NCBI GenBank assembly: GCA_046482545.1
Contig: JAWOEX010000027.1
Location: 1-45,156 of the forward strand
Reading direction: 5' to 3'
DNA length: 45,156 nucleotides
DNA from: Candidatus Thorarchaeota archaeon
GTDB taxonomy: Archaea > Asgardarchaeota > Thorarchaeia > Thorarchaeales > Thorarchaeaceae
The stretch's first letter is position 1. Each line of letters starts with the position of its first letter. Of the stretch, positions 1-11,096 are shown piece after piece. The notes beneath the pieces are model-generated. The model was not told where the DNA came from and made no database searches. It worked only from the letters and a program-made list of their open reading frames with translations. A program made the translations under genes and the position numbers.

Positions 1-8
1 TTTCTGGA

Positions 9-575
9 ATAACGAAAATCTTACAGATTCATAAGAAATCCGAGTAAAAAAAGTGTAAAACAAATGTAAGACTTCCTGCAAGTGCTGTTGTGACTGAAGG
101 CGGTATGACTTTATTAGGCCCAGTATGAGACCTGATTTCAGTAGGACTAGGCAAGTGGGCTAGTGTTAAACACGACGCACGCGGCCGAAAGCTGTGAGGT
201 GGACTCGTTCCACTAAGCAGAAGTCCCCACTCTCCACACAAAGGGCTTCATCAAGCCCTGGAGAGTCCGCGGCTGTTCACCTTGTCTGTAATGGGCCATC
301 TCGGCGGCGGTGACAATGTTGAGGTGGGTGATCATGACCACGCCGTGGTAAGAACTGTGGAAAGCCTCACTGTCGCCGGAATGATGACCCGGGACAAGGA
401 CAGGAGTAAGAAGCCAGGACCGCGGGAGGAATCCCATTCCTGTGAACGTGGACAAAGCCCCTGCTGACTCACGGGCCTTCGGGTACCGTGGGGGCGGCGA
501 CGCTGGCAGGGGAAGGGTGGAACACAGAAGTTTCCTCAGTTGGGTTCACTCACTCAACTGTAAGAAATGGGTTAT
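9..575 (+). mobile_element. Non-autonomous ~570-bp element (copy 1) carrying a structured-RNA-like interior
   Basis: Starts ATAACgaaaaTCTTACAG (9-26) and ends CTGTAAGAaatggGTTAT (558-575), an imperfect 18-bp inverted repeat. Flanked by direct repeat CTGGA (4-8, 576-580). Colinear homolog on the opposite strand at 2272-2828. Strand given is the inferred RNA-sense strand. Confidence 0.85.
111..560 (+). ncRNA. Putative large structured RNA inside element copy 1 (family unknown)
   Basis: Helices GTGAGG(194-199)/CCTCAC(365-370), GTGGA(199-203)/TCCAC(209-213), CACGG(470-474)/CCGTG(486-490) capped by c-UUCG-g, and CCCCTGCT(458-465)/GGCAGGGG(505-512). Several covary in copies 2 and 3. G-U pairs and UUCG/GAAA loops work on this strand. 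Boundaries approximate. Confidence 0.65.
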
Positions 576-3054
576 CTGGAGAACTTGATTGACAAAAACA
601 ATGAAGGATTCTCTCTTCAACTTTCGGGAGCCTGTATACTACAGAATAACACCTTCATCGACGATGCTTTGTCAATCCAGGGCCGAGCGAAGAGCAATTG
701 GGAGCACTCAATCCTAGGAAATACAATTGATGGAAGTCCGCTTGGTTACTTCCTAAGGGAAAATGATACAATCATACACGCGAGTCAATATGGACAGATT
801 ATTCTTGTTAGCGCTAACGGAACAAGAATAAGTGACGAAACATTCCAAAACAAACCCAGAGGAATCGTTCTTGCATACTCTGAAAATTGTAGATTGGTGA
901 ACATCACTGTTGCGGAATCGCAATCGAACGGTTATAGTCTCTACTCTTGTGCAAACTGTACCCTCGAGAACTCTACAGCAATTCAAAATGCAGGACATGG
1001 CGTCTACTCAAAATATTCGCCCTCCTGTGGATTTGCCAACAATAACGCCAGTAGTAACTCGGGGCATGGTTTCGTTCTGTTTCATTCTGAGAAATCTTCA
1101 ATCGTCAATAGCAGGATTGGAGCGAACTCGGAACAGGGAATAGAACTAGTCCATTCATCAAATTGCATCGTCGAAAATAACACCTTGAAAGACAACTCGC
1201 TAATGATAACCGGCATTAACGGGAGTTGGATGCATAACATATCTGGCAACACGATAGATGGAGCACAGCTGGGATACTTCAGGGGAATCACGAATAGAGC
1301 GTTTGATGCTGACGAGTTTGGGCAACTGATTCTTGTCGATTCCCATGGTGTTATAGTGGAGGATGGTGTTTTGAACAAGACTTGCGGCGGTATTCAACTG
1401 GCCTATTGCACACAAGTCACAATAACGAGAGTCACAGTAATCGGAAGCTCGACTCGTGCATTCTTCCTGTGGCACACTCTCAGCGTCACGCTATCTGACA
1501 ATGTAGCCGCTGACTGTAGAGGCGATGGGTTTGTCCTTGCCTCAGGCACAGGATGTTCATTCCTGAGAAATACTGCCAACGGGAATGAGGGAAATGGCTA
1601 TTTTCTCGGATTGCCCACTGGTTGTGTGCTCGCGGACAATGCTGCCCTTGATAACGGTGACTCTGGGTTTGTAACGAGGTTTGGCAAGAGTTGTACTTTC
1701 GACGGTAATACTGCTGGTACGAACGTGAATGACGGATTCGATGTGTCTGCCTCAGAAACTCTGATCACACGGAACGAAGCTCATGGGAATGGGAGAGATG
1801 GCTTTCATCTCAGTATATCTGATAGCGATGTTATGAAAAATGTGGGTACAGAGAATCAAAGATATGGAGCATATTTGGATAGTGAAAGCTATGGGAATCT
1901 CTTGTTCCTGAACCGGTTAGGGTTCAATGGCATAGCTGATGCTATAAATAACGGACATGCAACCCTCTGGCACAACGACGTTTTTGGGAATTATTGGGGC
2001 GCATATGATGGGCGTGGTACTTATTCTGTACCTGGAGCAGAGGAAAGCATTGATTTTCATCCCTACGAATACTATCGTGCTTCTCCTGTTATAGGCCATC
2101 CAGATGACATCTCCTACTCCTATGAACCGAATGGAAATGGAACTGCCCACGCAATTATTTGGAGAGCTTGGGATTGGGGTCATACCGCTTACCGCATATG
2201 GAGAGACTCTGCTTTGGTTTCGGCAGCCACTCTTCATGGATCGCATATCATTATCCATGAGATCTATCGAGATAACCTGTTTCTTACAGTTGTAGTAACT
2301 GTCTGAAACCTCTGTGTTCCACCCTTCCCCTGCCAGCGTCACCGCCCCCAAGGCTACCCAATGGGCCCTTGAGTCAGCAGGGGCTTTGTCCGCGTTCACC
2401 GGAATAGGATTCCTCCCGCGGTCCTGGCTTCTGTCTCCTGCCGTTGTCCCAGCACATCACTCCGGCGACAGTGAGGTTTTCCACAGTGCTTGCCACGGCG
2501 TGGTCATGATCACCCACCTCAACGTTGTCACCGCTGCTGAGGAGGCCCATTACAGACAAGGTGAACAGCCGCGGACTCTCCAGAGTTCGATGAAGCTCTT
2601 ACGTGGAGAGTGAGGACTTCTGCTTAGAAGGGCGATCCTTCCTCACAGCTTTCGGCCGCGTGCGTCATGAGGGATCACTAGCCCACTTGCCTAGTCCTAC
2701 TGGACCGGGGTTTCGCACTGGGACTAATAAACTCCCCACTGGGGTGATAAGAATCGTTGCAAGAAATCTTACAGATATTTTACACTTTTCCCCTCGGATT
2801 TTTTAGGATTATTGTAAAACTTGGCTATTCGAGAATTAACTCCTGGTGTTTACAACTATACTGTTGTTGTCACGGACGAAGAAGAAAATTCAATCAGTGA
2901 TACGGTATCCGTGACTATTGAATGGCCTGAGGGATACGAACCTGGGATTTTTAACTCAATAGATGTCCACCTCCTATTGACCGTTGTAGGGGCAGTTTCT
3001 GCGGTAGTTGTGATAGCCGTACTTGCTGTGGAAGGTTTTGAGAAACGAAGTTGA
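576..3054 (+). pseudogene. Right-handed beta-helix (NosD/pectin-lyase-like) cell-surface protein with C-terminal Ig-like domain and TM anchor, interrupted by two insertions; 5' part lies upstream of the window
   Basis: ORF 567-2306 has PbH1-type N/G-rich repeats, a duplicated GNTIDG.LGYF...GQ.ILV module and a GNYW motif. ORF 2821-3054 continues with PGVYNYTVVVTD...DTVSV, a hydrophobic helix and KRS. Deleting 2272-2833 gives in-frame HEIYR-ELTPGVYNYT; deleting 9-580 gives F-L-E-N-L-I-D-K. Confidence 0.85.
2272..2828 (-). mobile_element. Non-autonomous ~560-bp element (copy 2), inverted relative to copy 1
   Basis: On + it begins ATAACctgttTCTTACAG (2272-2289) and ends TTGTAAAActtgGCTAT (to 2828). 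Flanked by TCGAG (2267-2271, 2829-2833). Aligns end to end with the reverse complement of 9-575. Confidence 0.88.
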
Positions 3055-3250
3055 GCCGATTTTGGATACATTTCATATGGATAAAGCAAATCCCTACCGT
3101 AAATCCTCTGAGAGCCTAATCCTCGTGGTCACTAATTGGCAGAAAATCAGTAGAGATAATACTAGGATTTCTGTAAGGCATATTGCAATTGTGTGATTAA
3201 TCCAGCTGACTTGGTGAACACGCTTGGACTCCCTAAACGGAGTGAATGAT

Positions 3251-3516
3251 ATGACTGCTGAACACACTATAAGAAAAGTGCCAACAGATCGGAAGGAGCG
3301 CGTTGGCTGGTAGTTGTATGATTCTTGCAAATACAAGCTTCACAGTGTTGATAGTCACAGCCCTGTTCCCGCTTTTCTTTCGTCTTTTGGTCGGAAATGA
3401 GACGCTTGGAGACGCTATGTGGGGGTATGCTGGAAGTATAACGATGATAGTTATCGCATTGAGCTCGCCGGTGCTGGGTGCGATAGCCGATTTTGGAGGA
3501 TTGAAGAAGAAGTTCA
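3251..3516 (+). pseudogene. N-terminal remnant of a UMF1/ATG22-like MFS transporter
   Basis: ATG 3251 reads MTAEHTIRKVPTDRKERVGW*LYD, then a frameshift into LANTSFTVLIVT..FP.FF...SPVLGAIAD.GGLKKKF, the typical family N-terminus. In-frame stop, frameshift and truncation. Confidence 0.7.
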
Positions 3517-10799: not shown

Positions 10800-11096
10800 C
10801 TGTGTCCACGGTGATTTGAATGGTATCCATCCCGCGGCCCTAGTTTCTGTATCCTGTCGGGTTCCTGGGTCATCACTCCGGCGACAGCGAGGCCTTCCGT
10901 GAAGAAGCACATGTCTTCCTCGCAGCTTTCGACGACATGCTTCGTGTCACAGCACTAGGCCACTTGCCTAGTTCTGATGGAACGGGGTTCCGTACTGGAA
11001 CTAATAACCTCGCCCGTTTTTGGCCCTTAGAAGACTTGCAGGAATTCTTACATTTTTCTAAGCTGATTATTTAGCATTCTGAAATATTTTTGTTAT
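10800..11096 (-). repeat. Compact/diverged third copy of the structured element
   Basis: Shares GTCCACG..CCCGCGG.CCT.G.TTCT, CATCACTCCGGCGACAG.GAGG, CAGCTTTCG, CACTAG.CCACTTGCCTAGT.CT, ACTGG.ACTAATAA and TTGCA.GAA.TCTTACA with copies 1 and 2. Ends GTTAT (11092-11096) followed by TCAGG. Lacks ~140 nt internally; no recognisable other terminus. Confidence 0.85.

Follow-up and report, generated by a model that had tools for sequence, protein, structure and literature searches.

Gene-less miniature elements in a Thorarchaeota genome and their probable descent from an aCas1-TnpB transposon

Two related insertions in a surface-protein gene

The window analysed here is a 45,156-nt stretch of Candidatus (Ca.) Thorarchaeota DNA (assembly GCA_046482545.1, contig JAWOEX010000027.1, positions 1 to 45,156), near the beginning of which lie two copies of a repeat of ~560 bp, hereafter called minis. 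Copy 1 and the reverse complement of copy 2 align end to end with 81.9% identity over 551 nt (E = 1e-147), and each is flanked by its own exact 5-bp direct repeat (CTGGA and TCGAG, respectively; Table 1), as a preliminary description of this stretch had noticed. No open reading frame (ORF) for a transposase, recombinase or reverse transcriptase was found within either copy (Pfam scan, window ORFs up to ~10 kb); the claim of the same description that the window encodes no such protein thus stands for the copies themselves. Positions 149-430 of copy 1 match the final ~95 codons of a tnpB gene and carry seven stop codons, and the interior is therefore not wholly non-coding in origin.

Both copies lie in a single gene for a beta-helix surface protein (PF13229, PF05048), in which copy 2 is antisense. 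The ORF called at 567-2306 begins in copy 1, the right end of which (567-580) provides the broken downstream part of the gene with an in-frame start (ATG GGT TAT CTG GAG), and terminates within copy 2. Deletion of copy 2 together with exactly one 5-mer restores a 641-aa frame ending in a membrane anchor, whereas the frame stays unrestored when 0, 4, 6 or 10 nt are removed in place of one 5-mer. A similar gene in a sister species (G001) lacks the insert. An invertible cassette between the inverted copies was also considered and ruled out, since the two copies have separate duplications and copy 2 lies within a single host gene.

Full-length elements with the same ends

A hidden Markov model (HMM) of the element, built from 25 near-full copies, gave 104 matches in the genome of the window (G000; 3.05 Mb, 98.9% complete), occupying 33 kb or 1.1% of the genome. 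Several matches begin sharply at element position ~134, upstream of which lies an ORF of 545-560 aa whose final ~85-100 codons overlap the element interior. This ORF is TnpB (PF07282 above cut-off). It conserves D242, E403 and D437, and the RuvC-II glutamate is replaced by glycine, a pattern like that which Altae-Tran et al. 2023 (PMC10691335) regard as a rearranged, probably active site.

The left end is situated 8.2 kb (C20) or 8.3 kb (C28) from the right end in G000, and these elements are flanked by CTGGA/CTGGA and CAGGA/CAGGA, respectively; a 7.65-kb unit in G001 is flanked by CTGGA/CTGGA. Longer relatives containing an ORF, for which the preliminary description had proposed a search, thus exist as units of 7.6-8.3 kb, arranged as follows: left end, a giant gene (aCas1) on the reverse strand, a divergent promoter region, tnpB, a structured RNA that extends over the 3' end of tnpB, and the right end. 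The left end of copy 1 is common to the left ends of the 8.2-8.3-kb elements. Divergent aCas1-tnpB pairs were identified at 24 loci, 4 in G000 and 20 in relatives. Fourteen loci had been chosen for nearby RNA and six only for an aCas1 match, and a divergent TnpB is present at all six of the latter (6/6). Two types of TnpB occur beside aCas1, one of ~560-620 aa and the other of ~730 aa. The longer type (divergent to aCas1 at L275:526-2703, L276:375-2573 and L277:441-2621) has no match to the omegaRNA model and probably corresponds to the other published Asgard group.

Loci of this kind have been described in Asgard archaea as Cas1H-Asgard-1 and -2, with aCas1 proposed as the transposase (PMC10691335). 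The present elements share with them a Cas1 homologue adjoining tnpB, a repeat-flanked locus, the two TnpB types and the motif GTTCACTCA, which in that paper, as here, follows tnpB after a variable stretch. The parents of the minis therefore belong to this published class, and the earlier suggestion of an undescribed orphan family does not hold, an autonomous parent being present in the same genome. The main text of PMC10691335 says nothing of element ends, target or duplication length, nor of empty sites or copies without genes.

Several structural variants of the full elements were observed. The 8.2-kb element at L029 (G000 C20 236200-236750) has two nested left ends, the outer of which adds ~490 bp ending in C-terminal codons of another aCas1; left-end fragments similar to those of L029 lie at C20 190500-190990 and C33 20230-20640. 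A tRNA-Gly gene or tRNA-like 3' halves adjoin the ends of some full elements (L031:10700-10803; right flanks of L264, L266 and L267); of these tRNA features, ARAGORN confirms only tRNA-Gly and one tRNA-Ala left of L266. The tnpB leaders of G000 (C20 230330-230420, C23 122320-122410, C28 135190-135290 and C34 114450-114550) contain a conserved unit of ~80 nt preceding the tnpB TATA box, with the pattern GAGTTCA...GAGTGAACTC...GAAAC(A/G)GGTTAG. It is similar to the hairpin loop of the right end, GTTCACTC, and in part complementary to it, and is perhaps autoregulatory or an internal end that would let tnpB move alone. The tnpB at C34 is a solo gene without aCas1, directly upstream of which lies a gene pair (L032:7010-8829) that by eye resembles the AbiEi/AbiEii toxin-antitoxin type.

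The giant aCas1 protein

The ORF between the left end and tnpB encodes 1,400-2,000 aa on the strand opposite to tnpB, gives no Pfam hit and has 64 relatives. The term aCas1 is said to go back to Makarova et al. 2020. Residues 1-330 were modelled with a predicted local distance difference test (pLDDT) value of 86, and the top 12 structural matches to this part are all Cas1 proteins or casposases (Z 9.2-13.0; root-mean-square deviation (rmsd) 3.5-4.3 A over 152-200 residues), the best unrelated match reaching only Z 6.0. E92, H204, D211 and D214 are invariant. The Cas1-like domain has no match in the PDB by sequence, and its likeness to Cas1 is seen by fold only. Residues 385-930 (pLDDT 86) contain a PD-(D/E)XK-type motif and, behind the Cas1 domain, a RecA fold (Z 12.3, rmsd 3.2, 171 residues; Foldseek E = 2e-6) whose Walker A motif looks degenerate. 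The giant protein thus models as a succession of Cas1, Cas4-like nuclease and RecA-fold domains. A search of viral contigs for aCas1 relatives found none.

Architecture of the minis and their structured RNA

Copies 1 and 2 match the parents only at element positions ~7-72 and ~135-567. A mini consists of the left end (~72 bp), a segment of ~60 bp with a TATA-like box that replaces both genes, the whole RNA region of ~430 nt, and the right end. From position 144 to the end, the plus strand is structured (z = -2.8, compared with -1.5 for the opposite strand). Two-sided changes were found in 42 of 100 base pairs among 30 copies from several genera, a count that relatedness inflates, and two-sided cells numbered 241 versus 69 in shuffled and at most 64 in slid controls. 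Because this RNA lies over the tnpB 3' end and terminates at the right end, where sequence conservation stops at GTTAT, it is probably the omegaRNA of TnpB. No match was found in Rfam, introns and ribozymes included. The preliminary description had regarded a long covarying interior as atypical for miniature inverted-repeat transposable elements (MITEs): the covariation is real, and the interior probably corresponds to an omegaRNA, a type of RNA that PATEs, which are discussed below, are known to carry.

The middle segment of ~60 nt is absent from the corresponding place in the parents, and its best match outside the elements is a tnpB gene leader (weak, E = 2.6). It contains TTTATTAG exactly 34 nt upstream of the RNA start in all 31 scorable minis (31/31), and in three other genera the middle segment of the minis differs and carries TTAAATAG, CTATATAG or CTTATTAG 28-36 nt before the RNA. 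Archaeal TATA boxes lie ~25-30 nt upstream of the start site; the fixed spacing thus suggests that minis transcribe their own omegaRNA from a putative promoter. A sigma-70 promoter scan, the model of which is not applicable to archaea, gave chance-level counts.

The motif GTTCACTCA occurs in most copies with a long terminal hairpin, and copy 2 is a short-hairpin variant without it. The variable stretch preceding this motif has been suggested as a possible internal guide (PMC10691335). At most loci inspected, this stretch pairs with sequence after the motif and forms the 5' arm of the terminal stem, which makes the host DNA of the right flank the more likely guide. Shorter derivatives were also found. 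Internally deleted minis of 270-410 bp (G000 C20 117287-117702, C10 14857-15128 and C22 210919-211202) retain both ends and near-matching 5-mers, and their deletions stop near element position 440. In another copy (L025; G000 C41 16772), TCAAGA is fused directly to the omegaRNA start, apparently via TAGGCAAGT, a microhomology that the 5' end of the RNA has in common with one subfamily of left ends.

Table 1. Features of the two minis and their surroundings in the window
Feature	Position	Strand	Remarks
Left 5-bp target duplication, copy 1	4..8	+	CTGGA, with a T before it; consensus of the target RRWT^CNNGA
Left end, copy 1 (copy 1: 9-575)	9..80	+	Variable 7-nt spacer 9-15; TCTTACAG 19-26; repeated TGTAAAA 54-60 and TGTAAGA 65-71
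TATA-like box, copy 1	110..117	+	TTTATTAG, 34 nt upstream of the omegaRNA start; mini-specific segment; putative promoter
Predicted TnpB omegaRNA scaffold, copy 1	144..575	+	~430 nt, covering the relic 3' end of tnpB; GTTAT of the right end, 571-575
Terminal stem, copy 1	530..568	+	GTTCACTCA at 544-552
Right 5-bp duplication, copy 1	576..580	+	CTGGA; also probable omegaRNA guide start
Host gene segment between the copies	581..2266	+	Right-handed beta-helix (NosD-like) surface protein
Right 5-bp duplication, copy 2	2267..2271	-	CTCGA on the element strand (TCGAG as read)
Copy 2	2272..2828	-	Predicted omegaRNA from 2697 to 2272; TATA-like box at 2731-2724; left end at 2828-2757
Left 5-bp duplication, copy 2	2829..2833	-	TCGAG as read
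Stranded C-terminal part of host gene	2834..3054	+	End of Ig-like repeat and membrane anchor (by eye)
Third copy, decayed	10800..11091	-	Internally deleted, without right end

A further region of the window (3135-3516) appears to be non-coding, is 77% conserved in both sister species (G001 and G002), as are the neighbouring genes, and could be a small gene or RNA.

Ends, target site and duplication

Comparison of the 53 two-ended copies revealed a conserved right end (GAAA-N3-GTTAT), the last five bases of which are kept in 49-53 of the copies per position. At the left end, the first 5-8 nt after the 5-mer are highly variable across the family. The inverted repeat ATAAC-N5-TCTTACAG, which the preliminary description took for a family feature, is confined to copy 1; its statement that the ends are not of Tn7, Mu or insertion sequence (IS) type proved correct. 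TGTAAGA occurs several times at the left end and once at the right end, and TGTCAGA is found at both ends in other genera. Besides the right end itself, this repeated motif is the only conserved feature of the ends. The subterminal TCTTACA/TGTAAGA pair is restricted to this genus, the minis of other genera having no outer TCTTACA. The TGTAAGA and TGTCAGA motifs are arranged as expected of transposase-binding sites, for which they are candidates.

The target is RRWT^CNNGA and is used in one orientation, with T at -1 in 49 and W at -2 in 43 of the 53 copies. Identical 5-mers flank 27 copies, or 30 if an extra AT at the right end is allowed, compared with a permuted mean of 6.5 (P < 1e-4), and the 5-bp repeats first seen in the window thus extend to the family. 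Duplications of 5 and 6 bp are indistinguishable because T precedes both copies of the 5-mer. A 7-bp duplication in the copies with extra AT was ruled out, the left flank lacking AT in four of five, and at the one readable locus of this kind the AT belongs to the element side. A casposon-like duplication of 12-16 bp was likewise ruled out as a rule, since 37 of the 53 copies have no matching nucleotide beyond the 5-mer; three copies match the target for 4-5 nt past the core (0.64 expected, P = 0.02).

The NN positions of the target follow lineage. Among the 30 concordant copies, the nearest neighbour by left end has the same 5-mer in 15, compared with 6.2 expected (P = 4e-4), and all eight copies with a TAGGC spacer and either a CAAGA or a CTTGA core contain CAAGA (8/8), none having the inverse CTTGA. 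At three loci with differing 5-mers and a readable empty orthologue, the sequence of the orthologue equals the left 5-mer or comes closest to that one. The left 5-mer is thus the original target or the closest to it, and the right 5-mer changed after insertion. The left 5-mer sits in a retained host gene at these three loci, and selection on the host may explain part of the asymmetry between the two sides; repeated nicking and repair at the right junction and loss of the guide seed are other options. The orthologues also contradict a reading in which the left 5-mer is a mismatched core brought by the donor, for which the left 5-mer being closer to the lineage (17 versus 3) had spoken.

Distribution of the family and empty sites

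Copies of the family share 62-95% pairwise identity (median 75%). Element DNA was detected in 17 of 24 genomes of the Thorarchaeaceae; a search of 16 further genomes from the order and phylum gave no match (0/16). The aCas1 gene is likewise present in 17 of the 24 genomes, together with element DNA in 15, and is absent from the 16 other Asgard genomes; database homologues of the element-linked proteins bear the name Ca. Thorarchaeota. Collections of genomes and metagenomes were searched with a 17-base right-end pattern, but this was too short to be specific: its matches arose by chance, and none of the loci (0) matched the element HMM.

Empty sites were found in G001 or G002 at four loci, including the host gene in the window, and are gapless at two of the other three. 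Together with the restored reading frame, they bear out the earlier proposal of separate insertions of protein-free elements, for which empty sites in relatives had been sought. Like non-autonomous derivatives, the minis thus keep both ends of an autonomous element without any intact gene, are dispersed in many copies and have empty sites elsewhere.

Proposed origin and mobilization

The repeats in the window are most probably non-autonomous miniature members, of the PATE or MITE type, of the Thorarchaeota aCas1-TnpB transposon. This reading draws on the shared ends and architecture, the covarying RNA, the oriented target with its net 5-bp duplication, the empty sites and the fixed spacing of the TATA-like box, as well as on the Cas1 and RecA folds seen in the model of the giant protein. 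The minis contain no ORF and the parents reside in the same genome, in agreement with the earlier idea of Asgard elements dependent on a transposase in trans. The aCas1 of full elements would bind the repeated TGTAAGA motifs at both ends of a mini and join the 3' ends of the element to RRWT^CNNGA by Cas1-type strand transfer with a 5-nt stagger, in analogy to casposase, for which strand transfer with a longer stagger is known (review PMC9939771); it is probable that aCas1 integrates minis in this manner. Each mini would then transcribe its own omegaRNA, the guide of which would be the host DNA to its right, and TnpB acting in trans, loaded with this RNA, would cut element-free alleles, leading to restoration or spread of the copy by homologous repair. 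By analogy with IS605 elements, for which retention favoured by TnpB cutting has been shown (bioRxiv 10.1101/2023.03.14.532601), such an effect on the minis is fairly likely.

The least certain step is the choice of target. The lineage link of NN suggests that the previous junction of the donor helps choose the new target by pairing with it, possibly through the RecA-fold domain; the chance of such pairing seems slightly short of even, the alternative being a subfamily-specific protein preference. It is conceivable, if rather improbable, that aCas1 represents a new type of transposase, a Cas1-nuclease-RecA-fold fusion choosing its target by donor-junction pairing, and that the minis are self-promoted omegaRNA genes giving a few TnpB genes ~100 dispersed guides, an array-like mobile system outside clustered regularly interspaced short palindromic repeats (CRISPR).

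Several observations weigh against descent from and mobilization by the aCas1-TnpB element. The duplication is perfect in only 27 of the 53 copies, and the right 5-mer departs from CNNGA more often than the left one (12 versus 1, P = 0.003), which a plain staggered cut fails to explain. The Cas1 assignment comes from the model of a mostly helical domain, with a Foldseek E of only 0.05 and a best E of 0.009 for Pfam Cas_Cas1, and the PD-(D/E)XK domain is based on motifs and one weak Cas4 match (Z 7.4). All genomes are metagenome-assembled, and chimeric joins between copies are possible; the copies are related rather than independent, and the P values accordingly overstate the significance. G000 also contains other transposase genes, namely one Y1_Tnp and 4-5 DDE_Tnp_1 genes.

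An explanation that retains the same origin is conservative recombination at matched homology, in which a circle with a GTTAT-CNNGA-left end junction recombines at a look-alike site and the 5-bp repeat is the matched core. The lineage dependence of the 5-mer, including the exclusive use of CAAGA by the TAGGC-spacer copies, the three copies matching the target beyond the core, the absence of a conserved left terminus and a RecA-like domain that might help pairing are all in keeping with it. The orthologues at three loci, which have or approach the left 5-mer, exclude a mismatched core from the donor as the source of the left 5-mer, and the extra AT at the readable locus is on the element side. 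Under strict matching the product would be identical to that of the duplication model. This explanation is somewhat unlikely. Movement of the minis by an ordinary transposase encoded elsewhere in the genome (Y1 TnpA or a DDE IS), with aCas1 as cargo, is very improbable. The genes required exist in G000, and TnpB/omegaRNA modules usually depend for movement on a Y1 or serine TnpA; moreover, the terminal inverted repeat of a DDE IS holds CTGTAAAA, which loosely resembles CTGTAAGA. Y1 insertion leaves no duplication (bioRxiv 10.1101/2023.03.14.532601), however, the DDE IS carries terminal GGCTCTGT repeats of its own and lacks the element ends, the Y1 gene and the DDE IS both lie outside element ends, and the full elements with these ends hold aCas1 and TnpB and no such gene. 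No IS110, tyrosine recombinase, reverse transcriptase or serine resolvase gene was found in G000 (PF01548 and PF00239 included). The DDE IS is a separate sequence of 985 bp (G000 C4 40640-41624, also at C9, C18 and C29) with terminal repeats beginning with GGCTCTGTAAAATAA.

Two further explanations concern the nature of the repeat. That the RNA is also a self-splicing intron rescuing interrupted genes, as in IStrons, might be considered in view of the unusually long (~430 nt) and richly structured scaffold and of copies in sense orientation within genes. Rfam gave no intron or ribozyme match, genic insertions show no strand bias (3 sense, 3 antisense) and copy 2 is antisense in its host gene, so that this idea has very little to recommend it. 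The least credible explanation is an orphan MITE family bounded by terminal inverted repeats and moved by a DDE-type transposase unrelated to described systems. The 5-bp repeats, the imperfect inverted repeat of copy 1 and the lack of an ORF fit it; the left terminus is not conserved, and the ends common to minis and to aCas1-TnpB elements of a published class refute it.

Relation to known systems

The minis are gene-less omegaRNA-bearing derivatives, a known kind, within a transposon class that is published and uncharacterised. PATEs and related omegaRNA-bearing derivatives of IS200/IS605 that are not autonomous (Meers et al., bioRxiv 10.1101/2023.03.14.532601) likewise consist of two ends without a gene; their omegaRNA requires TnpB in trans, and they depend on a transposase in trans. 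The minis differ from them in that their parent has no Y1 TnpA, a net 5-bp duplication occurs where IS200/IS605 generates none, the scaffold is longer (~430 nt) and a dedicated segment with a putative TATA-like promoter is present. Casposons (PMC9939771) share a Cas1-fold integrase as the probable transposase, a target duplication and a sequence-biased target with the present elements. In contrast, the duplication is 5 bp here and ~15 bp in casposons, true terminal inverted repeats and a family B polymerase are missing (no additional ORF large enough for a polymerase is seen in the maps of full elements), the Cas1 domain has no N-terminal beta domain and in the model is joined to nuclease-like and RecA-fold domains, and TnpB/omegaRNA and ~100 dispersed copies are found instead of a single site.

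The tips of the minis lack the conserved terminal inverted repeats of a classical MITE. IS110/IS1111 elements are also distinct, as PF01548 (DEDD) was not found in the genome and the RNA lies over tnpB instead. IS607 elements encode a serine TnpA and TnpB and have asymmetric ends with several short repeated binding motifs and a GG dinucleotide core. The present elements resemble them in the TnpB/omegaRNA at the right end, the asymmetric ends with repeated short motifs and a short core on both sides, but no serine recombinase (PF00239) was found in the element or in the 98.9% complete genome, and the core is 5-6 bp with variable NN. In the literature found, which leaves many journals outside its coverage, no exact ends, empty sites in sister species, oriented target with 5-bp duplication, lineage-linked NN, minis or mini promoter are given for this class, and aCas1 as a transposase remains a conjecture.

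Significance

As a kind, gene-less omegaRNA-bearing derivatives are ordinary. The minis make the question of whether aCas1 is a transposase testable, because they provide a natural substrate of 560 bp whose ends are defined exactly, together with the orientation of the target, the length of the duplication and empty sites. For a TnpB with a rearranged site, they further offer a candidate target-adjacent motif, a candidate guide boundary and a scaffold of great length. For the host, the element family makes up ~1% of the genome, and minis disrupt surface-protein and other genes. If Cas1 had been recruited independently a second time as a transposase, in one element with TnpB, the ancestor of Cas12, this would bear on how the adaptation and effector modules of CRISPR came to meet.

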